From contig CAIMWF010000044.1 of NCBI GenBank assembly GCA_903845055.1, positions 27,419-91,418 on the forward strand: 64,000 nucleotides of DNA. The letters are read 5' to 3'. Shown in pieces: positions 39,655 through 62,757 of this stretch (positions are counted from its first letter, which is position 1; the number at the start of each line of letters is the position of its first letter). The notes beneath the pieces are model-generated. The model searched no databases. It was given only the letters and a program-made list of their open reading frames with translations, and was not told where the DNA came from. The position numbers were made by a program, and so were the translations under genes. This DNA is from an uncultured Bacteroidales bacterium (GTDB lineage: Bacteria > Bacteroidota > Bacteroidia > Bacteroidales > FEN-979).

Positions 39655-40032
39655 TTATAATAGTCTGGGCAGAAACAGGATGACCCCGACAATGACCGCG
39701 ATAGCGGCGGCCATCAAAACGGCTCCTGCTGCAACATCTTTTACGATCCCGGCCTGCTTTTCATAGCCGGGTGAAACCAGGTCGACCAGTATTTCAATAG
39801 CGGTGTTCATCGCCTCCATGGTGATGACCAACCCGATGGTGAGCAGAAGGATGCACCATTCGGTGGCGCTGAGCCGGGCGAGCGCGCCGCAGGCGACTGC
39901 GATGCAAACGGCGACAAGGTGTATCCTGAAATTCAGCTGACTGCCTGCCGTGTATTTTATCCCGTTGGCGGCATAGCCGAAACTCCGCAAACGGCCTGTG
40001 AGATGTGGTTTCAGTCCATGTATCGGCGGCAT
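39655..40032 (-). CDS. dgkA: Diacylglycerol kinase family protein
   Basis: 125 aa, three TM helices. RSFGYAANGI, NTAIE motif (MEAMNTAIE), KDVAAGAVL. The start overlaps the upstream kinase stop (TGATG). Confidence 0.85.
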   Translation of the reverse strand: MPPIHGLKPHLTGRLRSFGYAANGIKYTAGSQLNFRIHLVAVCIAVACGALARLSATEWCILLLTIGLVITMEAMNTAIEILVDLVSPGYEKQAGIVKDVAAGAVLMAAAIAVIVGVILFLPRLL

Positions 40033-43000
40033 CAGTTCTGGCTGTTTAAATGTTTCTCAAGCACCGACATCAGTTCGTGTGCTTTGATGGGTTTTGAAAT
40101 GTAATTGTCGCAACCGGCGGCAATGCTTTTTTCCCGCTCCCCCTTTAACGCGTAAGCTGTCTGGGCAATCACAGGCAGGTTCGGATGCTCCTTTTTCAGA
40201 ATCTGGGTTGTTTCATAACCGTCCATGACGGGCATGCGGATATCCATCAGGACAAGGTCAAAATCCCTCAGTTTGCAGATCGCGATCGCCTCCATGCCGT
40301 TTTTCACCCATACCAGTTTTGCCCCTGTATTTTTAAGCATCCGCTCCATCAGCAGGTAATTTGAATCTTCATCTTCGACGACCAGGATGTTCTTCCGGCT
40401 CCAGTCTTGCACCTTCATCGGAACATGCACCTGCCCGTATGGTTCGATGAACCTGGAGGTATTCTGGTATAGGGGCAGGAGAATGTAAAATGAGGTCCCT
40501 TTGCCACGTTCCGATTCAACGCGGATGGTCCCTCCCAGGAGCTGGACCAGGTTTCTTGAAATGGTGAGCCCCAGGCCGGCACCCCCGTATTTCCGGGTGG
40601 CGGTGTCGTCAACCTGCCTGAAACGCTCGAAGATGATATTGTGCATTTCCCGGGGGATCCCGATTCCGGTATCGCACACATAGAATTCAAGGTAGGGGAT
40701 GGTCCCGATGTTTTTCTGAATGTAGCCGAATTCAACATGTCCCTGGTCGGTAAATTTCAAACCATTTTCAATCAGGTTTGTCAACACCTGGCGAAGCCGG
40801 TTGCCATCGGTAAGGATCGTGAAATCGGGATCCTCGTTGCCCGGAATGCAGTTGAGAGCAACTTTTGTTTTGTTGGTTTTGCGTTTCACCTCGTTGAGGG
40901 TGACTACGAGATTCGACATCAGGGAGTTGAGCAGGCAATCTTTGATCTCGATTTTTATCTGGCCCGATTCAATCTTGGCAATATCAATGATGTCGTCGAT
41001 AATCCGCATGAGGTCGTTCCCGCGTTCCCTGATGATTTCGATGAATTCCTGCTGTTCATCCCTGGTGAGTTCAGGCTCGGACAGAAGTGATGAAAAGCCC
41101 AGGATGGCATTCATGGGGGTCCGGATCTCATGCGACATGTTGGCCAGGAAAGCCGATTTCAGCCGGTCGGAACCTTCTGCTTTGTCGCGGGCTGCTATCA
41201 GGCTCTGCTCGATGCGTTTATGTTCCGAAATGTCGCGGTATATGCAGTAGCCGCCTACAACCTGGTTGTTTATTGTTATCGGTGTGGCAAGGATGGAAAC
41301 ATCGATCAGGTGACCGTCCTTGTGATTGCGATGCGTCTCGGTCTCGGTAGTGATCCCCTTCAGGATGTCGGTTGTTATTTTTGTGGATTCGGCCCGGTTA
41401 CCAGGATCGGCGATGAGATCATCGACGGTCCGGTCAAGGACGTCGGACGGGGTGTATCCGAACAATTTCAGAAACGCCGTATTTACCCTCACGATTTTGC
41501 CAAGTTCCGTTGTCATGATGATTCCTTCGGGAGAACCTTCAAACAACTGGTCCAGGTACGCCTTTTCCTTCTGGAAGGACTCTTCCGCTCCTTTCTTGAA
41601 AATGGTCGTTGCAATGTGATCGGCGACGAAACTGAGCAGTTCGAGGTCATGCAGATCGTATTGTTCGGGATTGGTGTAACTCTGGATTGCGATAACCCCG
41701 ATTACTTTGTTGCCGACCTGGAGCGGAGCGCCCAGCCATACTTTCGACATGGTCCCCACAATTTCGATGGCCCCGGAAGCGACAAGTTTTTCTGTATCCT
41801 GTTGTGATGCAAGGAGCGGAGTTCTCGTTTTTATGACATAGGCAGTCAGTGTCTTGCCTGCCGGGAAGGCAGTAAAAGTGTCGTTTGAATCAACCTGGAA
41901 GGGCAGTGTGATGGTATCGGAACCTTCATCATACATGGCCAGGTAGAAATTTTCGACATCGATGATCATCCCGAGGCTCTTGTGAATCAACCGGAAAACC
42001 TCGTCAAGGTTGCCGGAAGTGTAGGATGCTTTTGATATTTCAAGCAACACATTCTGGATCTGTTCGGCATGTTTGTATTCCGAGATGTCAGAGATGAAAC
42101 CTTCTATAAAGGAGTTGCTGCCGTCGGGGGGATTGATGTATTTCCCTTTTTCCCACACCCATTTTATTTTCCCGTCGGCACATTTTATCCGGTACTCGAC
42201 GATAAAGGGCTTGTTGGCATGCTGGCCGATCTGCACCTCCTCCCATACACGCTCCTGGTCCTCTGCAACGATGAGATCGTTGTAGGTAATGGATTTGTTC
42301 AGGATGATGTCGGCCGGGGAATAACCTGTGAGTTCAATACAGCCGTCGCTGATGAATTCCATGGTCCAGTTGCGGTCGTTGCGGCACCGGTAAACCATCC
42401 CCGGCAGGTTGTCGAGCAGCGTCGCAAACTGTCTTTTTGATTCGGAGAGTTCGCCCGTTCTTTTTTGTTGTTCCGAAATGTCCATGAAGGTTTCCAGCAC
42501 GGCTGGCGTGCTGCCGAACATGACGGGGATCGAAATGTTCAGAATGGGAATTTCCCTTCCGCTCCTGTGGAACAGGATACCCTCTGAATCCCTGACCACG
42601 CTGCCGTTGCCGGTGAGGTTGTGAACATCGGTGCCTGTGGCGCGGATCCTCGCGGTAACCGAGGTGCCGGTCAATTCCCCTGGTTTATCATAACCCATCA
42701 GAGAAACCCCCGTTTTGTTGATCATGAGAATCTTGTCACCGCTCCCGGCAATCATCAGTCCATAAGGGATGGCATCGAAAATGGCGTGCATGCCGTCAAA
42801 TTCAAGGACCCTCCTGGTGGTATCGTCATATTTTGCAGTAATGTCGGCCAGGGTGAACTGGCAGAGGTTGCAGGTCCCGTTTTCGCCGGGGATGACATTC
42901 CCGTCCACCGCTACCGTAATGGCTTGACCGTCACGGCGGATCATTTCAAATTCAGCGTGGTGCATTTCACCGTCCCTGCACAGTTGCACAAACATGGACT

Positions 43001-43241
43001 GAAACCGGCCTGGACCTTCCCCCGACAGGAGATCACCAAACAACCTGCCAATCACCTCTTTCTCATCAAACCCCGTGATGGCTTGCCAGCATGGATTCAC
43101 AAGGAGCAGCCTCCCTTGGCCATCAAGCCGCTGGTAACCAACGGGGGCATGGTGCAGCAACCCGAGGAGGCAGTCACGTTCAGATGGTGGAGCGACACTG
43201 GATTTTCGGAGAATATCCGTTTCTTCGATGTGTGGGTTCAT
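40032..43241 (-). CDS. Hybrid sensor histidine kinase / response regulator (multi-PAS, GAF, HisKA, HATPase_c, REC)
   Basis: 1069 aa. H-box [26 protein letters not shown], G-boxes DTGIGIP and [10 protein letters not shown], receiver [11 protein letters not shown]...[14 protein letters not shown]...YISKP. Confidence 0.93.
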   Translation of the reverse strand: [1069 protein letters not shown]

Positions 43242-47011: not shown

Positions 47012-49036
47012 ATGTTTGATAACGATGAAAATGAAGGAACCGGGGAACTGCGCCGGAAAGCTGAAGATCTGGTAAAATCCGCCTCTGTTTCGGGTGCCTT
47101 TTCAATGCCCGACCTTTCAGAAACCGACATATTGAAACTCATTCACGAACTCCAGGTGCACCAGGTCGAACTGGAAATGCAGAATGAAGAGCTCCGTCAT
47201 GCCTGGGCAGTAGGACAAATTGCGGTTGACAAGTATACCCAGTTGTACGAATTTGCACCAACAGGATATTTTTCATTGTCAAGGGAGGGCAAAATTACCG
47301 ACATCAACTTTTCCGCGTCCCAGATGCTGGGGAAAGAGCGTTTGCGTTTAAAAAACAGCTCCTTTATTTTTTTTGTTTCGAATGATACGAAACCGGTATT
47401 CAGACATTTTTTTGAGAACGTATTTGCCGGTAAAACCAGGGAAATGTGCGAGCTGGCCCTTGCAACAGGTGGAAATTCCCCTTTCTATGTTCAGCTTACC
47501 GGCAGGCTTACCGAAAATGAAGATCAATGCCTGGTTGCCATGATCGATGTCACCGAACGGTTAAGGCTTGAAAAGGAGGTTAAAGAGCGTGAAGAAAAAT
47601 ACCGCATCATCGTTACTACCTGCCGGGATGCCCTGTTTCTTATTGACCCGGAATCCGGTGCAATCCTGGATGCAAATGATGCCGCCTGTAAACTCTATGG
47701 TTTCTCCACGGAGGAATTGAAAGAATTGAAAAACACCGATTTATCCTTTGAACCGGCCGCGACAAGATTTGCGACGATCAACCTGAAGGAGAGAATCGAA
47801 CTTCGATATCACAAAAAAAAGAATGGGCGGGTCTTCCCGGTGGATATTTCCTCAAACCTTTTAATGATGGACGGGAGGGAGGTCATCCTTGCCGCGATTC
47901 GCGACATAACCGATCGCCAGGCAGATGAAGATGCCCTGAAAGAAAGTGAGGGACGATTCAAGTCTTTGTTTGAACGGCACAGCGCGATCATGCTGCTCAT
48001 CGATCCCGGATCAGGTCAGATCATCCATGCAAACCATGCCGCGGCACTGTTTTATGGATACAGTATTTCCGAATTGTGTTCCATGACCATCGACCAGATA
48101 AACGGGTTGTCAGCCGGGGAGGTAAAATCAGAGTTGCTAAACGCGGCCGGTCAAAACCGCAACTTCTTCGTTTTTTCACACTTTTTAGCCAGCGGGGAGG
48201 AACGTATTGTTGAAGTGCATTCATCCCCGATCGATTATTTGCAGAAACGGGTGCTTTTTTCAATAATATTTGACATTACCGAACGCAAACAGGCTGAGAC
48301 ATTGATAACCCTTAAAAATGCAGAACTGCTGAAACTCAGCGCCGAAAAAGACAAATTCTTCTCCATCATCGCCCACGACCTGCGCAGCCCTTTCAATGCA
48401 TTCCTTGGCTTGTCAAAGATGATGATCGAAGAGTTTGATACCATATCATCCGATCAGCTTCGCAATATCGCCATGAGCATCCAGAAGTCGGCAACCAACC
48501 TTTACAGCCTTCTGGAAAACCTGCTGGACTGGTCGCGCATCCGGAGGGGGGCAATCCCATTTGAACCTGCATTATTGTCGCTGCTGCCAATGATCGAAGA
48601 AGCTTTAAAACCGGTCGGGGAATTGGCCTTCAGAAAGGAGATAGAGATCGGGTATGAAATTGCCGCCGATTGTAAGGTTTTTGCCGACCGGTTTATGCTG
48701 GGTACGATCCTGCGCAACCTGGTTGCCAATGCCGTGAAATTTTCTTACAGGGGCGGAAAAATATCCATTGTTGCAAAACCTGCGGGCGGCCACCTGGTTG
48801 AAATATCCATCAGGGACAAAGGAATTGGCATGGATGGAAAAATGGTTGAAAATCTGTTTCACCTCGATAATCATGCAAACAGGAAGGGCACGGAGGGAGA
48901 GTCCTCTACAGGACTGGGCCTCGTCATCTGCAGGGAGTTCGTTGAAAAAAACGGAGGAACCCTGCGGGCGGAGAGCAAGGAGGGCAATGGCTCCGTATTT
49001 TATTTTTCATTGCCGGCAGACAGCGGGGAGGAGTGA
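47012..49036 (+). CDS. PAS-domain sensor histidine kinase (coiled coil, 3 PAS, HisKA, HATPase_c)
   Basis: 674 aa. N-terminal HELQVHQVELEMQNEEL, PAS ends D(V/I)TER, H-box FFSIIAHDLRSPFNA, G-box STGLGLVICREF. Confidence 0.92.
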   Translation: MFDNDENEGTGELRRKAEDLVKSASVSGAFSMPDLSETDILKLIHELQVHQVELEMQNEELRHAWAVGQIAVDKYTQLYEFAPTGYFSLSREGKITDINFSASQMLGKERLRLKNSSFIFFVSNDTKPVFRHFFENVFAGKTREMCELALATGGNSPFYVQLTGRLTENEDQCLVAMIDVTERLRLEKEVKEREEKYRIIVTTCRDALFLIDPESGAILDANDAACKLYGFSTEELKELKNTDLSFEPAATRFATINLKERIELRYHKKKNGRVFPVDISSNLLMMDGREVILAAIRDITDRQADEDALKESEGRFKSLFERHSAIMLLIDPGSGQIIHANHAAALFYGYSISELCSMTIDQINGLSAGEVKSELLNAAGQNRNFFVFSHFLASGEERIVEVHSSPIDYLQKRVLFSIIFDITERKQAETLITLKNAELLKLSAEKDKFFSIIAHDLRSPFNAFLGLSKMMIEEFDTISSDQLRNIAMSIQKSATNLYSLLENLLDWSRIRRGAIPFEPALLSLLPMIEEALKPVGELAFRKEIEIGYEIAADCKVFADRFMLGTILRNLVANAVKFSYRGGKISIVAKPAGGHLVEISIRDKGIGMDGKMVENLFHLDNHANRKGTEGESSTGLGLVICREFVEKNGGTLRAESKEGNGSVFYFSLPADSGEE

Positions 49037-49065: not shown

Positions 49066-52005
49066 ATGAGCGACAGGAGAACAAAATACATAGAGACGGT
49101 AAAAAAAACAACCCCGGGGCTGATCACCGGATTATCTTCGTTCCCCATCGTGGGCATTGGCGCCTCGGCAGGCGGGCTTGAAGCACTGGAACAGTTTTTC
49201 GGGAGCATGCCCAATGACAACGGCATGGCCTTCGTGGTCATTCAGCACCTCGACCCCAACCATGCAGGCATGATGCCCGAATTGCTGCAACGGATCACCC
49301 CCATGAAGGTATTCCAGGCAGCCGACCGGCTGAAGGTGAAACCCAATTGTGTATATGTGATCCCCCCTGGCAAAAGCCTCTCGATGCTCAATGGCGCCTT
49401 GCATTTGTTCGACCCGGTTCAGGCGCGGGGGCTGAGGCTGCCCGTTGATGTTTTCTTTCGTTCGCTGGCCGATGACCAGCAACACCGGAGCATAGGCATC
49501 ATCCTGTCGGGAATGGGCAGCGATGGCAGCCTCGGGCTGAAGGCCATCAAAGAAAAAAACGGGATGGTGCTGGTGCAGGAGCCGGCCACCGCAAAATTCG
49601 ATGGCATGCCGCGCAGCGCCATCGAAGCGGTCATTGCCGACATTATAGCGCCTGCCATGGAATTACCAGCGCGGCTGATCTCATTTCTTAACTTTATCCC
49701 GGCCGCGAAGCCAGACAGCGACATCGATGGGAAAACCACCGGCAATCTCGATAAAATCATCATCCTGATCCGTGACCAGACCGGCCACGACTTTTCAATG
49801 TACAAGAAAAACACCCTTTTCCGACGCATTGAAAGACGCATGGGGGTTCACCAGATTGACAAGATTAACACCTACGTACACTTTTTACAGGAGAATACAA
49901 GGGAGATCGACATTCTGTTCAAGGAGTTGCTCATCGGCGTTACAAACTTTTTTCGCGATGCCGCTGTTTGGGACTGCCTGAAAGAAAAAGTGATTCCCGC
50001 ACTTACCGACGAATTTCCTTATGGGCATGTGCTGCGCGCCTGGGTTACGGGATGTTCGACAGGCGAGGAGGCCTACAGCCTGGCCATTGTCTTTAAGGAG
50101 GCGCAGGAAAAAACTCAAAATCATAAAAACATAACGCTCCAGATATTTGCCACCGACCTCGACCCCGACGCCGTTGAGATTGCGCGCAGGGGCGTTTACT
50201 CCTCCGGTATTGCGGCGGATGTATCCCCCGAACGCCTGAACCATTTTTTTATGGCCGACATGGAAGGGTACCGCGTGAATACCTCCATCCGCGAAATGGT
50301 GGTGTTTGCCAGCCAGAATGTGATCAGGGATCCTCCCTTTACCAAGCTCGACATTCTTACCTGCCGCAATTTACTCATATACATGCAGCCGGATCTGCAG
50401 AAGAAGGTGATCGGGCTTTTTCATTACAGCATGAACCCCGGCGGATACATGCTGCTGGGCACTTCCGAAACCCTGGGGACCGAAAAAAGGGGTTTTGCGG
50501 AGGTTGATTCCAGGTTGAAGATTTTTAAACGCAGCATCTCGCCTGCGGAGAAGGTACTGGTTGATTTTCCAAGTTCTTTTTCACGGCCGAAACGTGTAAC
50601 AGCCGAAGAGACAAAACCGCCGGAGGATGTTGTCAACCTGCAGGCCGCGGCCGACCAGTTCATGCTTCGGCACTTTACCCCGGCCGGTGTGCTGGTGAAT
50701 GGCGAGGGTGACATTCTTTACATGACCGGCAACATCGGCCGGTACCTTGTTCCGGTTGCCGGGAAGGCTGATTATAACATCCATGTGATGGCACACGATG
50801 GTTTTCGCCAGGGTTTGCCCGGGGCACTGCGCAAAGCGATGCAAAACCCCGACCCGGTCGTACTGGCCAATGTGAAGGTCGGGACCAACGGGGGCACCCG
50901 CTTTGTTAATGTAACAGTTCAAAGGATTGAGAAACCCGGTTCAACGGCCGGTTTGGTTATGGTTGTATTTGCCGACGTGCCTGCCCCGGTAGAAAATGCA
51001 GCATTGAAACCGGTCAACAGGAAAAACAGTTCATCAGGGCGAATGAAAGAACTTGAAATTGAACTGCAAAGGAACCAGGAGGACATGCAGAGCACCCGCG
51101 AGGAGATGCAGACCGCCCAGGAGGAGTTGAAATCAACCAACGAGGAACTCCAGTCAACCAACGAAGAATTGCAATCGACCAACGAGGAACTCAACACCTC
51201 CAAGGAAGAGATGCAGAGCCTGAATGAAGAGCTGCAAACGGTGAATGTGGAGCTGCAGAGCAGGGTGACTGATTTTATCAGGGCAAACGACGACATGAAA
51301 AACCTGCTTAACAGCACGGAGGTTGCAACTTTGTTTCTCGACAGGGATATGAACGTCCGCAGGTTTACCGACCAGGTAACGAAAATTATCAAATTGCGGA
51401 ACTCCGATACCGGCAGACCCTTCACCGACCTGGTATCCGATTTGCAATATCCTGAAATCGTGAGCCATGTCACGGAGGTGATCCGAACCCTGGTATCGGT
51501 TGAAACTGCCATTCCAACCACCGACGGAAGGTGGTTTAATGTCCGGATTATGCCATACCGCACGGTTGATGACCACATTGACGGGCTGGTGATAACATTT
51601 TCGGATATCACCTTCGCCAAGATTGCCGAGAAAACGCTGTCCATCTCTGAAACCCGCTACCGCCGCATCTTTGAATCGGCAAAAGATGGAATTCTTATCC
51701 TGGATGCAGAATCCGGTAAAATCGTGGATGTGAATCCATTTCTCATCAAATTGCTGGGCTATTCAAAAGAACAGTTCCTTGAAAAAGCGATCTGGGAAAT
51801 AGGATTCCTTAACGACATCGTCGCCAACAAGGATATCTTTACGGAATTGCAGGAGAAGGAGATTGTCAGGTATGAAGATTTACCGCTTGAAACAGCGGAT
51901 GGCAGGAAGATCAATGTTGAGTTCGTCAGCAATGTTTACCTGGTCTCCGGCGTGAAGGTAATCCAATGCTTTATCCGCGAAAGCATTGGCCACTTCCCAT
52001 TATAA
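49066..52005 (+). CDS. CheB methylesterase - CheR methyltransferase fusion protein with PAS domains and a heptad coiled coil (no kinase or receiver module)
   Basis: 979 aa. CheB catalytic domain (IVGIGASAGGLEAL...ILSGMGSDGSLG...FDGMPRSAI), CheR domain (TNFFRD...WVTGCSTGEEAYSLA...IFATDLD), STNEELQ repeats, two C-terminal PAS domains. Confidence 0.9.
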   Translation: MSDRRTKYIETVKKTTPGLITGLSSFPIVGIGASAGGLEALEQFFGSMPNDNGMAFVVIQHLDPNHAGMMPELLQRITPMKVFQAADRLKVKPNCVYVIPPGKSLSMLNGALHLFDPVQARGLRLPVDVFFRSLADDQQHRSIGIILSGMGSDGSLGLKAIKEKNGMVLVQEPATAKFDGMPRSAIEAVIADIIAPAMELPARLISFLNFIPAAKPDSDIDGKTTGNLDKIIILIRDQTGHDFSMYKKNTLFRRIERRMGVHQIDKINTYVHFLQENTREIDILFKELLIGVTNFFRDAAVWDCLKEKVIPALTDEFPYGHVLRAWVTGCSTGEEAYSLAIVFKEAQEKTQNHKNITLQIFATDLDPDAVEIARRGVYSSGIAADVSPERLNHFFMADMEGYRVNTSIREMVVFASQNVIRDPPFTKLDILTCRNLLIYMQPDLQKKVIGLFHYSMNPGGYMLLGTSETLGTEKRGFAEVDSRLKIFKRSISPAEKVLVDFPSSFSRPKRVTAEETKPPEDVVNLQAAADQFMLRHFTPAGVLVNGEGDILYMTGNIGRYLVPVAGKADYNIHVMAHDGFRQGLPGALRKAMQNPDPVVLANVKVGTNGGTRFVNVTVQRIEKPGSTAGLVMVVFADVPAPVENAALKPVNRKNSSSGRMKELEIELQRNQEDMQSTREEMQTAQEELKSTNEELQSTNEELQSTNEELNTSKEEMQSLNEELQTVNVELQSRVTDFIRANDDMKNLLNSTEVATLFLDRDMNVRRFTDQVTKIIKLRNSDTGRPFTDLVSDLQYPEIVSHVTEVIRTLVSVETAIPTTDGRWFNVRIMPYRTVDDHIDGLVITFSDITFAKIAEKTLSISETRYRRIFESAKDGILILDAESGKIVDVNPFLIKLLGYSKEQFLEKAIWEIGFLNDIVANKDIFTELQEKEIVRYEDLPLETADGRKINVEFVSNVYLVSGVKVIQCFIRESIGHFPL

Positions 52006-52018
52006 ATATTGAACGACG

Positions 52019-55000
52019 ATGAAACAGGACAATATATCAGCATCCGGAATTCTGCGGCATAAGGCCGAAATGTTTCTGAAAAACAGGCCTTCGGCATCAG
52101 CTTCACAACTTTCTGAAACAGAGATGGTGGAACTTATTCACGAACTTGAAGTGCACCAGGTGGAGCTGGAAATGCAGAATGAAGAGCTCATGAAGGCAAG
52201 GTCCGCCGCTGCAGATTCCGCTGAGAAATACACCAGCCTCTATGAATTTGCCCCTGCGGGTTATCTTACCATCTCCCCTGATGGAAGAATTCATGAGATC
52301 AACCTCCGCGGAACACAAATGCTGGGCAGTGACCGTTCCCATTTACAAAACAGTTTTTTTGATATTCATGTTTCCAAAGAGACCAAGTCAATTTTCAACC
52401 AGTTCCTGAACAGGGTGTTTGATAAACAGGAAAATGAGTCATGCGACGTGGCCCTGACAACGAATGGCAGCATCCCCGTGTATGCTCAGCTTACCGGTGT
52501 TTTAGCTGAAAACGGCGTGAATTGCCTGCTGACCGCTGTTGACATTACCAAACGCAGGCATGCGGAAGAGAGGGCATGCCAGCTGGCCGCCATCGTTCAG
52601 TCATCAGAGGATGCCATCATCGGAAAAAACCTCGGCGGGATGATCACAAGTTGGAACAAGGGGGCAGAAAAAATATACGGGTATACAGAATTGGAGATGA
52701 TCGGCAGACCTGTTTCAATACTGACTCCGGCGGGTAACGACGATGAGGTTCCCGCCCTCCTTGAAAGGATCAAATCGGGACAGGTTATCCAGCATTACGA
52801 AACCTCGCGCAGGAGAAAAGACGGGTCGGAAATCCAGGTGTCGCTCACCATTTCTCCCATTTTTGATTCCGAAGGCAGGATCATTGCCGCGTCGACCATT
52901 GCAAGGGACATCACGGGGCGCAAGCAGGCAGAGCAGACCCTGCATGAGAGCAGGCAGGAGCTGGTTCATACCATCAGCCAGCTAGCGCTGGCGCAGCAAA
53001 CCGGGCATGTCGGTTCCTGGAATTTCGATCTCAGAACCAATAAACTCAGCGGATCGGCCGAAGCGCAGCGATTGTTCGGTCTTTTTGACCGTGATAACTC
53101 TTTTGATCTTCAACACATTGAGGACTGCATTCCCGACCGCGAACGGGTTCACCAGGCTTTGACAGATCTCATTGCAAATGGCACTCCGTACGACCTTGAA
53201 TATGTCATTAATCCGGCCGATGGATCGGAACCCAGGGTCATCATCTCAAAAGCCACCATCGGAAAAGATTCGGCAGGCAATCCTGTTTCAGTGAACGGCA
53301 TCGTCCAGGACATCACCGAAAATAAGCTCATCTCTGAGAAATTACTGTCACAGACAACGTTGCTTGAAGCCCAGCTAAACTCTACCCTTGACGGGATACT
53401 GATTGTAGGCCGGGATAACAGGCGGATTCTCTTAAACCGGCGCATGATCGAATTGTTTAATGTTCCGGCGGATATTGCCGAAGATAAGGATGATTCCAGG
53501 TTGTTGAAACATGTGATGGACCTGACCAAAAATCCCGGCAGGTTTCTTGAAAGGATCATCTATCTGAACGATCATCCGGATAAGGAAAGCAGCGATGAGA
53601 TCGAATTTGCCGACGGGATGGTCATTGACAGGTATTCGGCGCCTGTAGCCGGCAGGGATGGGAAAAGCTTTGGGCGGATATGGATTTTCCGCGATATTAC
53701 CGAACGCAAGCTGGCAGATTCATTGTTCCGGGACATCATTGAAAAAAATCCGATATCCATTCAGATTCTGAACATGGATGGCTATACGATCCAGACAAAC
53801 CCGGCTCACACAAAACTTTTTGGCGTGACAACCCCGGCAAATTATTCTATTTTTAAAGACACGCAATTATTGAACCAGGGATTGGGTGTGTTGTTTGATA
53901 AGGTTAAAGAGGGTGAAACCGTAAATTTTCCTGATTCAAAGTTTAATGTCCATGACGTAGACCCTTCGTTTCCGGATGTCATGGCATGGATCAAGGCAGT
54001 AGGATTCACTTTGCAAAATAAAAACGGGGTGCCCCACCGGGTGGTCCTGATGCATGAGAACATTACCGAACGCAAACATGCGGAAGCCCTGTTCCATGAT
54101 ATTATTGAAAAAAACCCGATGTCAATTCAGATCGTTGATAAAAACGGGTATACGCTCAATGGAAACCCGGCCTATACAAATCTTTTTGGATCACTTCCTC
54201 CTCCCGGCTTTTCAATTTTTGAAGACCTGCAGCGTAAAAGTCCGGAACTCGGGAAATTAATTTCGCTTGCCAGGCAGGGCGAGGTGGTTCATCTCCCCGA
54301 CATATATTATAATACGAAAGATGTTGACCCTGATCTCCCGGATAAACCGGTGTGGATCCGTGCCCTTCTTTTTCCGCTGAATGATACCAGCGGGAAACCC
54401 GAACGGTATGTTTTCATGCACGAGAATATCACAGAACGCAAGCTGGCTGAACAGGAACTGATCAAAACCATGGAGCGGGCCGAGGAATCCGACCGGCTGA
54501 AGTCGGCTTTCCTTGCCAACATGAGCCACGAAATACGGACGCCCATGAACGGGATCCTGGGTTTTGCAGGGTTGCTGAAAGAACCGGGATTAAACGGGGA
54601 GGAGCAGCAAAAGTATATCCGGATCATCGAAAAAAGCGGTACGCGTATGCTCAACATCATCAATGACATTGTGGATATCTCGAAAATAGAATCGGGACAG
54701 ATGGAGGTTGCTCTTTCTGCCGTGAATGTCAATTCGGTTACCGACTATTTATATGCCTTTTTCAAACCGGAAGCTGAAACAAAGGGAATACGGCTGATCC
54801 TTGAAAATTCGCTGCCGGCAAAAGAGGCGGTTATCATTTCCGACAAAAACAAATTCGATTCCATTCTTACCAACCTCATCAAGAATGCGATAAAATACAC
54901 CTTTGCGGGATCTATTGAATTCGGGTACCATTTTGTTGGGACACCCCATCAACCATTCCTTCAATTTTTTGTAAAGGACACCGGTATCGGAATCCCGGAA

Positions 55001-55618
55001 GAGCGGCAGGAAGTCATATTTGAACGCTTTATCCAGGCTGATATTTCCGATACACAGGCATACCAGGGAGCCGGGCTGGGGCTGGCCATTGCCAAGGCAT
55101 ATGTTGAAATGCTTGGTGGCAAAATCCGGGTGGAAAGCGAATATGGAAAGGGTTCCGTGTTTTATTTTTCCATTCCGTACATTACAGGTAACCAGGCAAT
55201 CAACACCTTTGTAAATGCTATTTCTACGGAAAATCCGGACACCCGGGTTGCAAAACTGAAAATCCTGATTGCCGATGACGATGAAACCTCCGACCTGTTC
55301 ATCGAAACGCTGATCAGTCCGTTCAGCAGGGAGGTCCTGCATGCGGAAACAGGAACCGAGGCCGTTCGTTTGTTCGGCAGCAATCCTGACATCGACCTGG
55401 TGATGATGGACATGAAGATGCCCGGAATGAACGGCTACGAAGCCACCCGGCAAATCCGTCAGTTTAACACGGATGTGATCATCATTGCCCAGACAGCTTA
55501 CGGACTTTCAGGCGACCGGGAGAAGGCCCTGGAAGCAGGATGCAATGATTATATTTCGAAGCCCATCGCCAGGGAGGAATTGCTTGGCCTGATTCAGAAA
55601 CATTCAAATAAGGTGTAA
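52019..55618 (+). CDS. Hybrid sensor histidine kinase / response regulator with multiple PAS domains
   Basis: 1199 aa. N-terminal HELEVHQVELEMQNEEL, repeated PAS ends (DIT(E/G)RK), H-box SDRLKSAFLANMSHEIRTPMNGILGF, G-box GAGLGLAIAK, receiver ILIADDDETS...DLVMMDMKMPGMNG...YISKP. Confidence 0.93.
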   Translation: MKQDNISASGILRHKAEMFLKNRPSASASQLSETEMVELIHELEVHQVELEMQNEELMKARSAAADSAEKYTSLYEFAPAGYLTISPDGRIHEINLRGTQMLGSDRSHLQNSFFDIHVSKETKSIFNQFLNRVFDKQENESCDVALTTNGSIPVYAQLTGVLAENGVNCLLTAVDITKRRHAEERACQLAAIVQSSEDAIIGKNLGGMITSWNKGAEKIYGYTELEMIGRPVSILTPAGNDDEVPALLERIKSGQVIQHYETSRRRKDGSEIQVSLTISPIFDSEGRIIAASTIARDITGRKQAEQTLHESRQELVHTISQLALAQQTGHVGSWNFDLRTNKLSGSAEAQRLFGLFDRDNSFDLQHIEDCIPDRERVHQALTDLIANGTPYDLEYVINPADGSEPRVIISKATIGKDSAGNPVSVNGIVQDITENKLISEKLLSQTTLLEAQLNSTLDGILIVGRDNRRILLNRRMIELFNVPADIAEDKDDSRLLKHVMDLTKNPGRFLERIIYLNDHPDKESSDEIEFADGMVIDRYSAPVAGRDGKSFGRIWIFRDITERKLADSLFRDIIEKNPISIQILNMDGYTIQTNPAHTKLFGVTTPANYSIFKDTQLLNQGLGVLFDKVKEGETVNFPDSKFNVHDVDPSFPDVMAWIKAVGFTLQNKNGVPHRVVLMHENITERKHAEALFHDIIEKNPMSIQIVDKNGYTLNGNPAYTNLFGSLPPPGFSIFEDLQRKSPELGKLISLARQGEVVHLPDIYYNTKDVDPDLPDKPVWIRALLFPLNDTSGKPERYVFMHENITERKLAEQELIKTMERAEESDRLKSAFLANMSHEIRTPMNGILGFAGLLKEPGLNGEEQQKYIRIIEKSGTRMLNIINDIVDISKIESGQMEVALSAVNVNSVTDYLYAFFKPEAETKGIRLILENSLPAKEAVIISDKNKFDSILTNLIKNAIKYTFAGSIEFGYHFVGTPHQPFLQFFVKDTGIGIPEERQEVIFERFIQADISDTQAYQGAGLGLAIAKAYVEMLGGKIRVESEYGKGSVFYFSIPYITGNQAINTFVNAISTENPDTRVAKLKILIADDDETSDLFIETLISPFSREVLHAETGTEAVRLFGSNPDIDLVMMDMKMPGMNGYEATRQIRQFNTDVIIIAQTAYGLSGDREKALEAGCNDYISKPIAREELLGLIQKHSNKV

Positions 55619-61038: not shown

Positions 61039-62757
61039 TTATGGTTGATTGCCGCTTACCGGCCCGGATAGATACCCCGCCACCAGTTCCCTGAGTTTCT
61101 TTGGATTCAGGGGTTTGGTTACATAATCGTCGCACCCTGCCGCGATTGCTTTTTCGCGGTCGCCCGTGATGGCATAGGCTGTCTGTGCAATGATGCGGAT
61201 ATCGGGATTGATGTTCTTGATGGCAATGGTTGCTTCATACCCGTCCATAAAGGGGAGTTTTATGTCCATCAGGATCAGCGGGGTTTGTGGGTTTTTTTTG
61301 ATGAAATCGATGGCTTCGGGACCGTTGATGGCATGTTGGATGGAAAGGCACATTGGGGCGAGAATTCCTTCGATCAGGTGGAAACTGTCAATGTCATCTT
61401 CAACCACAAGCACCAGGTTATTGGCAACAGGTTGCTGGAGCCGGGAGATATTGCTGTCTGCAACAACCGACCCCGGGGCGCCGGGCGGGTTCATCAGCGG
61501 GATGGCGACATAGAAGCAGGATCCTTCGCCCCACTTGCTTTTCAGCCAGATCCGGCCATGAAGGATCTTTACGATCTTGTCAACGATGGACAACCCGATG
61601 CCGATTCCCTCCCTGTTCATTTCATGGTAATTGAACTTGGTAAAACGTTCAAATATTTTATGCTGGTCTTCATCGGGGATCCCGGTTCCGGTATCGGATA
61701 CCGATAACAGGATATCACCCTTGCTTTTCCGGCAACCGATGCGGATAATCCCTCCGGAGGTGTGTTTGATGGCATTGGAAAGGAGGTTTGACATCACCTG
61801 CTTCAGCCTGAACAGGTCGGAATATATCTCGAAATCACCCTCCGGAAGGGAATATTCAATGGTGATTGCGGTTTTATTTCTGCGTTGCAGTTCCAGGTTG
61901 CTGATATCCACGAGTTCGATAAAGAGTTCCCGGATGCTGAAAGTTGAAAAATGCAGTTTGATATCGCCGGCTTCAATGGTCGACAGGTCGATGATCTCGT
62001 TGATCAGTCGCAGCAGGTTGTCGCCGCTGTTTTGTATGATCTTTAAAAATTTTTGTTTTTCCTCTTCGTCACATTCCCCTTCAAGAAGCTGGCTAAAGCC
62101 GATGATGGCATTCATGGGGGTCCTGATTTCGTGCGACATGTTGGCCAGGAAGGCGGATTTCAATTTATCGGACCGGATGGCCCGTTCCTTCTGGTAAAGA
62201 AAATCGTTTTTGATTTTGTTAAGCACGAACAAGAGCAGGACGGAATACAGGAAGAAATTCAGATAAATATCGATGGTTCTCGTTTTCAGGTCAGGATAGG
62301 CAAAATGAAAACCGGGACTGGTATATTCAACGATGAACAATACTAAAAGGTTGACGTAATAAAAGGCAATCATCCGGACCAGGCACCAGCCATCCCACAC
62401 CCAGATAATGAGGGCGCCGAAAACAAAAACCAGGAAAACTACGGGACCCAGGGAAAGGAATTTTACATACCAGGTGAGGTCGAGTATCACCAGCCCCACC
62501 CCTGTCAGGATCAGTTTAGGGAAATAAATGCAATTTGTAAACCTTACCAGGAAATACAACACCATGCATACTGCCGCGCCGACAGCTCCAAGGTAAACCG
62601 GCGCCACGCTGAATCCCATGACAAGGTGGAAGATACTGAGTAATATCAGGAAAACGCAGGATGTAAAGGTCATCATGGTCATGAAATACCTTTCATACTT
62701 CACCTGTCCCTTTTCGCCGTAAACAGTGTCAAAGAGTTTGCTGAAAGGATTGTTCAT
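61039..62757 (-). CDS. Membrane-bound hybrid sensor histidine kinase / response regulator
   Basis: 572 aa. About 5 N-terminal TM helices, H-box SDKLKSAFLANMSHEIRTPMNAIIGF, G-boxes DTGTGIP and GIGIGLSIV, receiver LVVEDDIDS...LILMDIKLPFMDG...YVTKP. Confidence 0.92.
   Translation of the reverse strand: MNNPFSKLFDTVYGEKGQVKYERYFMTMMTFTSCVFLILLSIFHLVMGFSVAPVYLGAVGAAVCMVLYFLVRFTNCIYFPKLILTGVGLVILDLTWYVKFLSLGPVVFLVFVFGALIIWVWDGWCLVRMIAFYYVNLLVLFIVEYTSPGFHFAYPDLKTRTIDIYLNFFLYSVLLLFVLNKIKNDFLYQKERAIRSDKLKSAFLANMSHEIRTPMNAIIGFSQLLEGECDEEEKQKFLKIIQNSGDNLLRLINEIIDLSTIEAGDIKLHFSTFSIRELFIELVDISNLELQRRNKTAITIEYSLPEGDFEIYSDLFRLKQVMSNLLSNAIKHTSGGIIRIGCRKSKGDILLSVSDTGTGIPDEDQHKIFERFTKFNYHEMNREGIGIGLSIVDKIVKILHGRIWLKSKWGEGSCFYVAIPLMNPPGAPGSVVADSNISRLQQPVANNLVLVVEDDIDSFHLIEGILAPMCLSIQHAINGPEAIDFIKKNPQTPLILMDIKLPFMDGYEATIAIKNINPDIRIIAQTAYAITGDREKAIAAGCDDYVTKPLNPKKLRELVAGYLSGPVSGNQP

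Follow-up and report, generated by a model that had tools for sequence, protein, structure and literature searches.

Enzymes of the CheB and CheR type need something to modify, and the question raised by the locus described here is what that something might be. The textbook account of sensory adaptation rests on the reversible methylation of glutamates by CheR and CheB, a mechanism not known to have been shown outside chemoreceptors. In a 64,000-nucleotide stretch of DNA from an uncultured Bacteroidales bacterium (contig CAIMWF010000044.1, hereafter the window), a gene for a CheB/CheR fusion protein of 979 residues also encodes a run of near-identical, glutamate-rich heptads. A first-pass annotation of the window had likened this array to the methylation sites of methyl-accepting chemotaxis proteins (MCPs) and proposed that it could be a built-in substrate. 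We find that the array is most likely a highly constrained coiled coil that serves as an MCP-independent methyl-accepting or docking helix. Between these roles we lean tentatively, with slightly less than even confidence, toward a helix that serves the fused enzymes as their own methyl acceptor, with multiple sites, and whose charge state would tune signaling through the adjoining PAS_10 domain to an output domain in cis or in a neighboring protein.

The heptad array and the fusion protein

The features of the fusion gene are as follows; structure predictions are from AlphaFold2, with confidence given as the predicted local distance difference test (pLDDT).

49066..52005, plus strand: CheB/CheR fusion gene, 979 residues, in the order CheB, CheR, PAS-like domain, linker, long helix, PAS_10, PAS (open reading frame [ORF], Pfam, homologues)
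49150..49677, plus strand: CheB methylesterase catalytic domain, residues 29-204, without a receiver domain; triad S34/H61/D153 (Pfam PF01339, E = 1e-56)
49747..50514, plus strand: CheR methyltransferase, with an all-alpha N-domain (residues 228-277) and an S-adenosylmethionine (SAM)-binding domain (residues 292-483, E = 1e-50) (Pfam PF03705, PF01739)
50638..50979, plus strand: beta-rich PAS-like domain, residues 525-638 (AlphaFold2 secondary structure, pLDDT about 70-88)
50983..51039, plus strand: variable linker, predicted to be disordered, residues 640-658 (pLDDT <50; column entropy 3-3.8 bits)
51040..51315, plus strand: single predicted helix of 92 residues, 659-750; its 13 heptads keep one register without a break, and its net charge is -14 (AlphaFold2, pLDDT 79-88)
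51091..51258, plus strand: the flagged array, residues 676-731, eight heptads, seven of them with a Glu-Glu (EE) pair; consensus [S/T]-[T/A/S]-N-E-E-[L/M]-Q (translation, Tandem Repeats Finder, conservation)
51295..51612, plus strand: PAS_10 domain, residues 744-849, running on directly from the helix (Pfam PF13596, E = 5.6e-29; AlphaFold2)
51655..51933, plus strand: second PAS domain, residues 864-956 (Pfam PF00989, PF13426)

The first-pass reading of 51091-51258 as STREEMQ TAQEELK STNEELQ STNEELQ STNEELN TSKEEMQ SLNEELQ TVNVELQ is exact and in frame in the ORF at 49066..52005 (plus strand). The 21-nt periodicity that it reported was recovered by Tandem Repeats Finder as arrays with periods of 21 and 42 nt over 51065-51261. 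EE[LM] occurs seven times in succession at a spacing of exactly 7 residues; when the helix was shuffled 20,000 times with its composition preserved, no run exceeded three motifs, and a run of three came up once. The three STNEELQ-type units use different synonymous codons, with 81% nucleotide identity at 100% amino-acid identity, which indicates that the repeat is maintained by protein-level selection and not by recent DNA duplication or slippage. Two antisense ORFs overlap the array, at 50919..51644 (minus strand, 241 residues) and 51154..51576 (minus strand, 140 residues). We rejected both as genes; they are most likely by-products of the GAR/CAR-rich repeat, the reverse complement of which lacks stop codons.

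The heptad frame extends beyond the flagged array to 13 heptads (residues 661-751), with Leu, Met, or Phe at each seventh residue except in the last heptad (T751). As the first-pass annotation had supposed, the EE pairs recur every 7 residues along one continuous helix, predicted by AlphaFold2 to be unbroken from residue 659 to 750. This helix holds 19 Glu and 4 Asp against 9 Lys or Arg, which gives the net charge of -14. Viewed as a leucine zipper, the repeat is unbroken, with Leu or Met at every seventh residue, and the second core position is Asn (Thr or Ala in the alternative register) in seven of the eight heptads. The full-length model was built from an alignment of 50 diverse homologues and reached a mean pLDDT of 80.5 and a predicted template modeling score (pTM) of 0.38.

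The array was also correctly placed inside a protein that carries CheB and CheR catalytic domains: Pfam matches and alignment to the E. coli enzymes show the catalytic residues to be intact. In BLASTP alignments, S34, H61, and D153 align with S164, H190, and D286 of E. coli CheB, which we take to be its catalytic triad. The CheB alignment starts at E. coli residue 153, from which we conclude that the regulatory receiver domain is absent from the fusion. K247, R254, R257, and R258 align with K46, R53, R56, and R57 of E. coli CheR, presumably the basic helix of the N-domain that contacts the acidic methylation helix, and GCSTGEE (ASTGEE in E. coli) and CRNLLIY align with the SAM-site motifs of CheR. 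Across 50 full-length homologues, S34 and H61 never vary, D153 is conserved in at least 90%, and the CheR basic-helix and SAM-motif residues are invariant or at least 90% conserved. Foldseek searches of the PDB matched the CheB domain to 3sft and 1chd and the CheR domain to 5ftw, 1af7, and 1bc5. Because the catalytic and substrate-recognition residues are intact and conserved, both activities are, to judge from the sequence, probably real, and a substrate is therefore required.

At about residues 395-400, the beta-subdomain of the fusion CheR (window 49720-50580) has a 3-residue gap relative to E. coli (M---ADMEG versus MRGTGPHEG). A 3-residue insertion in this subdomain marks pentapeptide-dependent CheRs. 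If that rule holds here, the fusion CheR would be pentapeptide-independent.

A Pfam scan gave no match to the PAS-like domain at residues 525-638, a region conserved in the search for cluster representatives (the query of which began at residue 599). Its PAS-like pattern of secondary structure suggests that the helix joins two PAS-type domains. For the C-terminal half, the structural neighbors found by Foldseek in the PDB are tandem-PAS sensors with long inter-PAS helices (PpsR, LOV-HK, and FixL). Pfam gave only sub-threshold matches to eukaryotic coiled-coil families on the coil region, a PDB sequence search with residues 484-860 returned only chance coiled-coil matches and no related solved structure, and no NCBIfam family reached its cut-off for the fusion protein. 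The coil region of some homologues (P0005, P0008, P0018, and others) carries the precomputed Pfam labels PF28159, PF28175, PF24161, PF28422, and PF28256, which may stand for generic coiled-coil families or for one newly built around the helix.

Conservation of the helix and its likeness to chemoreceptor sites

The window protein is a typical member of a large family, with the CheB triad, both CheR domains, the coil, and PAS_10 all present in the family's domain order. At least 8,000 homologues are named 'two-component system CheB/CheR fusion protein' by JGI, a name that we take to correspond to KEGG K13924, cheBR. Among the matches listed, the closest relatives are Bacteroidota metagenome-assembled genomes and Flavobacterium, and the top homologues are 62-82% identical to the window protein. 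Residues 599-860 match 13,381 representatives of 50%-identity clusters at E ≤ 1e-10; a homologue search with the helix alone returned only fragments of ≤161 residues. Longer family members carry output domains in cis, namely HisKA/HATPase, HWE_HK, or SpoIIE (PP2C), and the unit of CheB, CheR, coil, and PAS thus behaves as an input module.

We examined conservation in two independent sets that together span about 10 phyla: the best 150 of the 13,381 representatives clustered at 50% identity, and 70 species-level genomes stacked without gaps on a DMKNLL anchor. Of the 150 representatives, 97 are short and lack enzyme motifs; one of these that we traced starts at base 2 of its contig and so is a fragment. 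In both sets, the glutamate pairs of heptads 3-7 (E693/694, 700/701, 707/708, 714/715, and 721/722) are 97-100% invariant, and the flanking residues are nearly as constant (Asn 90-100%, Gln 92-99%, Ser 91-99%). The lone hydrophobic position is looser, with Leu at 49-97% and swaps with Met, and the T/A/S position is the most variable in the heptads. The first-pass annotation had named in advance the outcome that would count against it, EE pairs that vary among orthologues while only the hydrophobic positions are kept, and the alignments contradict that outcome. In a full-length alignment of the 979-residue protein with 50 homologues, 11 of about 72 invariant columns fall in the array. The helix is ungapped in 49 of these 50 homologues, and the sole indel is a deletion of exactly 7 residues. 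If the helix forms a two-stranded coil with Asn at a and Leu at d, then the Glu, Glu, and Ser residues would lie at the outward positions b, c, and f, and dimerization alone would not explain their invariance.

The array resembles MCP methylation sites in several respects. As in Tsr, EE pairs recur every 7 residues on an acidic helix; CheR- and CheB-type enzymes are present, and the half-site EExx[small][S/T] occurs downstream as well. In both systems, conservation is highest at the second Glu of the pair, and charge neutralization is a plausible control variable. When Ala is relaxed to Ala or Ser, the half-site EExx[A/S][S/T] matches the fusion protein three times (EELKST once and EELQST twice). 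The systems also differ. Asn flanks the EE pair of the array in place of Leu or Met, and the fusion protein has no MCPsignal Pfam match and no MCP signaling domain. Its enzymes are covalently fused, whereas a pentapeptide recruits those that act on MCPs, and its output passes to a two-component kinase or PP2C phosphatase and not to CheA.

The likeness claimed at the level of sequence pattern did not survive. It had been stated that each heptad presents S-x-x-E-E-x-x-S-T, which is literally true of only two registers, and the consensus quoted in support, [A/S]xxEEx[A/T/S][A/S][A/T/S], matches nowhere in the fusion protein, because Gln occupies the place of Ala, Thr, or Ser in MCPs. Published descriptions of MCP sites include [ASTG]-[ASTG]-x(2)-[EQ]-[EQ]-x(2)-[ASTG]-[ASTG] (PMC6391922) and EExxA[S/T] (PMC1079850). 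In the positive control, E. coli Tsr, the first pattern finds only 297, 304, 311, and 493 and the second only the first three of these. The array therefore shares spacing, acidity, and the half-site with MCP sites and lies outside that class of sites as it is defined; its failure to fit the consensus means that any recognition would have to differ in detail from that of enteric CheR.

We searched for chemoreceptor and che genes near the fusion. The queries for phmmer were the cytoplasmic domains of Tsr and Tar from E. coli, CheW, and the P1-P2 and P5 domains of CheA, and the targets were all ORFs of at least 80 residues in the window and in 161 fetched loci, with CheBR flanks of up to 10 kb on each side. 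The 80 CheBR loci come from Bacteroidota, Verrucomicrobiota, Myxococcota, Desulfobacterota, Beta- and Gammaproteobacteria, Acidobacteriota, Chloroflexota, Planctomycetota, and Firmicutes. Searches with Tsr, Tar, CheW, and CheA found nothing in the 64-kb window, and che genes were found in only 2 of the 80 CheBR loci (MCP and CheW in L025; CheA in L058). A cruder regular-expression pre-test, which also matched the Tsr control, agrees with phmmer. Many of the host lineages, such as Flavobacterium, Pedobacter, Hymenobacter, and Porphyromonas, are commonly regarded as being without any MCPs.

These observations can be combined in the following proposed mechanism. A strongly acidic coiled-coil helix of 92 residues, with the heptad array at its core, would connect the CheB and CheR domains to the PAS_10 sensor domain. 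The fused CheR would place methyl groups on the second Glu of the N-E-E-L-Q-S repeats, and CheB, which has no receiver domain, would take them off again. The changed charge of the helix, at up to about seven sites per chain, would tune signaling by the helix and PAS_10 to an output domain, which may be fused in cis or, in the window, may lie in a neighboring helix-PAS histidine kinase. Several points count for a built-in substrate. The enzymes need a substrate, and che genes are present in so few CheBR loci. The indel of exactly 7 residues, the 7-residue spacing as in MCP sites, and the half-site in three heptads all point the same way, and covalent tethering would take the place of the pentapeptide tether. 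Near-identical heptads would show a single active site the same recognition surface again and again, which is what one would expect if it modified several sites. The invariance of the exposed Glu, Gln, and Ser residues counts here too, as do the intact enzymes that have no other evident substrate, the missing CheB receiver domain, the family members with cis outputs, and, as described below, the two-way gene linkage and the profile match to the partner module.

Other points weigh against the built-in acceptor. Both published MCP consensus patterns gave 0 matches in the 979-residue fusion protein. The array has Gln where MCPs have Ala, Ser, Thr, or Gly; its hydrophobic residue follows the EE pair (N-E-E-L), whereas that of MCPs precedes it (L-E-E-T); and the model predicts one continuous helix and no antiparallel four-helix bundle. 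Where a Glu of a pair is replaced, Gln is no commoner than Asp, both being rare, which leaves the array without the E/Q signature of MCPs. A multi-partner binding surface would account equally well for the near-total conservation at almost every heptad position. At a pTM of 0.38, the domain arrangement in the AlphaFold2 model is unreliable and permits no conclusion on whether the enzyme active sites reach the helix. Finally, the analysis shows the domain architecture, the intact catalytic residues, the conservation and strict register of the heptads, the gene linkage, and the lack of MCP, CheA, and CheW neighbors, whereas methylation of the array glutamates, a parallel-dimer coil, and association of the array with partner helices are inferred.

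The strongest alternative is that the helix has a structural signaling role only, as a parallel dimer with an Asn ladder at position a and marginal stability that passes on PAS-driven rotations or register shifts, while the enzymes act elsewhere, on MCPs where present or on another protein. The register is unbroken over 13 heptads, with indels only in units of 7, and the helix joins two PAS-type domains as in its Foldseek neighbors PpsR (Q-linker), LOV-HK, and FixL. By the general rules of coiled coils, parallel dimers in register are favored by Asn at a with Leu at d. The MCP consensus does not fit the heptads, and some hosts (Geobacter, Thauera, and Massilia) do have chemotaxis systems. However, a purely structural role leaves unexplained why the outward Glu, Glu, Ser, and Gln are more conserved than the core Leu, and 14 net negative charges per chain would be costly for such a dimer. 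The scarcity of che genes around the fusion also speaks against it, as does the retention of array and enzymes together in lineages generally held to lack MCPs, such as Bacteroidota. We consider this alternative unlikely, although it is a real contender.

A partner gene with a look-alike helix

The genes that flank the fusion bear on a second alternative. The first-pass annotation missed a conserved partner gene with a look-alike helix, which makes a substrate or docking site in trans a serious rival to the built-in acceptor. The features concerned are as follows.

47012..49036, plus strand: upstream partner, a PAS histidine kinase of 674 residues with the same N-terminal helix-PAS module as the downstream partner; it ends 29 nt before the fusion gene
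47144..47194, plus strand: look-alike helix motif HELQVHQVELEMQNEEL, residues 45-61 of the upstream kinase
52019..55618, plus strand: downstream partner, a hybrid histidine kinase of 1,199 residues (N-terminal helix-PAS, further PAS, HisKA-HATPase-REC), 13 nt after the fusion gene
52139..52189, plus strand: look-alike helix motif HELEVHQVELEMQNEEL, residues 41-57 of the downstream kinase (AlphaFold2, conservation)

Only three proteins in the window contain NEEL: the fusion and, at their N-termini, both flanking kinases. The N-terminal modules of the two kinases are 47% identical over about 185 residues, and the partner module consists of a short LRxxAE helix, a variable linker, the long helix HELxVHQVELEMQNEEL, and a PAS domain, in that order. 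In the downstream kinase, HELEVHQVELEMQNEEL lies inside a long N-terminal helix (residues 33-76, nt 52115-52246) ahead of the first PAS domain. AlphaFold2, run on an alignment of database proteins, predicts the module with a pLDDT of 86.6, with the helix spanning these 44 residues and the PAS domain residues 81-175. The helix has three heptads in the frame of the array, with E42, E49, and E56 each standing where the array has its second Glu and with L43, L50, and L57 directly after them. E49, E51, Q53, and L57 are invariant in both partner alignments; N54 does not vary in the first of these alignments or the second by more than 10%, being invariant in one of them. The first Glu of the partner NEEL varies among Ser, Thr, Ala, Asp, Val, and Gln. 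When the fusion helix and PAS_10 were aligned with the partner helix and PAS using hhalign, the heptad register was preserved (probability 88%, E = 2.8e-6). In our reading, the kinase helix (HELQVHQIELEMQNxEL) is distantly related to the array's C-terminal end and would probably associate with it.

The partner module (window 47012-47575 and 52019-52573; loci L001-L160) has a second conserved element, a short N-terminal motif at residues 12-20, (L)R-x-x-AE-x-x-L, where conservation reaches at least 90% at L12, R13, and A16. This motif might be a tether or a docking peptide.

The CheBR fusion and the helix-PAS partner form a conserved gene pair, and at fusion loci the partner nearly always lies directly downstream. 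By eye, the gene directly downstream of CheBR (same strand, gap of 0-40 nt) starts with the partner module in about 55 of 60 cases. Under a strict test for NEE[LM] in the first 130 residues, 28 of 57 adjacent ORFs matched, compared with 14 of 2,017 other ORFs. The linkage also appears from the other side: among metagenome loci chosen by the partner module alone and with enough upstream sequence, 34 of 59 have a CheBR-type ORF upstream, directly adjacent in 28. About 45% of partner genes have no CheBR gene within 6 kb, and a check of 270 homologues turned up none in which the CheBR array and the partner helix motif are naturally fused.

Some loci hold more than one copy of either gene. A second CheB/CheR-fusion paralogue lies within 10 kb in L007 (2035-6708, minus strand) and L010 (55-2910, plus strand), and two or three partner-module genes stand in tandem in L042 (12895, 14447) and L070 (6778, 12907, 14900). 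These paralogues and tandem partners suggest one-to-many wiring. The window region itself is rich in two-component genes: two more hybrid histidine kinases, at 40032-43241 and 61039-62757 (both minus strand), have the architectures PAS-GAF-PAS-HisKA-HATPase-REC and HisKA-HATPase-REC, and neither has a NEEL-type N-terminal helix.

On the second alternative, the N-terminal helix of the neighboring helix-PAS proteins is what becomes methylated, and the array is a docking or dimerization scaffold that forms a mixed helical bundle in place of the pentapeptide tether. The linkage between the CheBR and partner genes is strong both ways, both flanking kinases in the window carry the module, and the partner helix is confidently predicted over 44 residues. 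Its three heptads keep the register of the array with Glu at the second-Glu position, and it conserves E49, E51, Q53, and L57. The partner genes that stand away from CheBR would fit one enzyme with several substrates, as for CheR with MCPs. Against this, the EE of the partner is not conserved as a pair, since its first Glu varies, and the partner offers few candidate sites compared with seven invariant pairs in the fusion. The array is also kept in family members with cis outputs and in L058, without an adjacent partner, and none of the 270 homologues fuses the array to the partner motif. We judge methylation in trans to be quite unlikely as the explanation of the array, although the built-in acceptor and a partner substrate can both be true together.

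The weakest explanation, a chance low-complexity sequence or a recently expanded tandem DNA repeat without specific function, could appeal to the 21- and 42-nt periods but has next to no chance of being correct, as it is refuted by in-register conservation that spans about 10 phyla and, at 50% identity, more than 13,000 clusters, by units that differ at synonymous sites, and by shuffles that never reproduce the array. Collectively, the data exclude both chance and a plain dimerization zipper.

The built-in acceptor can be extended to a fuller proposal: that the fusion is a self-contained, MCP-independent adaptation module, in which about seven identical Glu-Glu sites on the covalently attached coil store a methylation 'memory' that is passed through PAS_10 and a mixed helical assembly, formed with the N-terminal helix of neighboring helix-PAS proteins, to histidine kinases, PP2C phosphatases, and other outputs. 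Taken as a whole, this proposal is plausible but more doubtful than not.

Significance and relation to known systems

CheB/CheR fusions are very common, with more than 13,000 clusters at 50% identity in at least 10 phyla, and occur in loci without chemoreceptor genes nearby. In the searchable literature, the coverage of which leaves out slash-containing names and subscription journals, the family appears in gene and annotation lists and in one passing mention as 'CheB/CheR HK'; we found no functional study there and no paper on a NEELQS-type motif or on the mechanism of the family. As far as we can tell, neither the heptad code, with its invariance and strict register, nor the conserved partner gene has been described. 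If the built-in acceptor is correct, CheR/CheB adaptation would work without chemoreceptors, on two-component signaling, and methylation-based memory would extend to two-component kinases and phosphatases generally. On the fuller proposal of a self-contained module, chemotaxis-style adaptation would operate in ordinary two-component systems of at least 10 phyla, including non-flagellated Bacteroidota. The conserved gene pair offers a simple two-protein system for testing the built-in substrate directly.

The signaling helix, or S-helix, of Anantharaman, Balaji and Aravind (2006) is reportedly about 40 residues long with a central E-R-T signature. Like the fusion helix as predicted here, it is a parallel coiled coil that joins sensory and output modules and has polar residues in its core. 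It differs in length and motif: the fusion helix has 92 residues, no ERT, and a repeating NEELQS unit.

Among proteins with fused methylation enzymes, the closest comparison is with FrzF, a CheR-TPR protein in which the extra module controls which sites are methylated (PMC3447774). Both proteins fuse CheR to an additional targeting module. Unlike the fusion, FrzF has an MCP, FrzCD, as its target and belongs to a che-like cluster (PMC3447774). The fusion, in turn, also has CheB and has no MCP nearby, and its extra module is a Glu-rich coiled coil followed by PAS domains.

Among PAS sensors, the closest comparison is with the Q-linker of PpsR bound by AppA (4hh3, 4l9g), which is likewise a long helix between the PAS domains of a dimeric sensor. 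The PpsR linker lacks the repeated invariant EE heptads of the fusion helix, and PpsR lacks modifying enzymes. The PpsR-AppA complex nonetheless provides a precedent for the docking of a partner on an inter-PAS helix.

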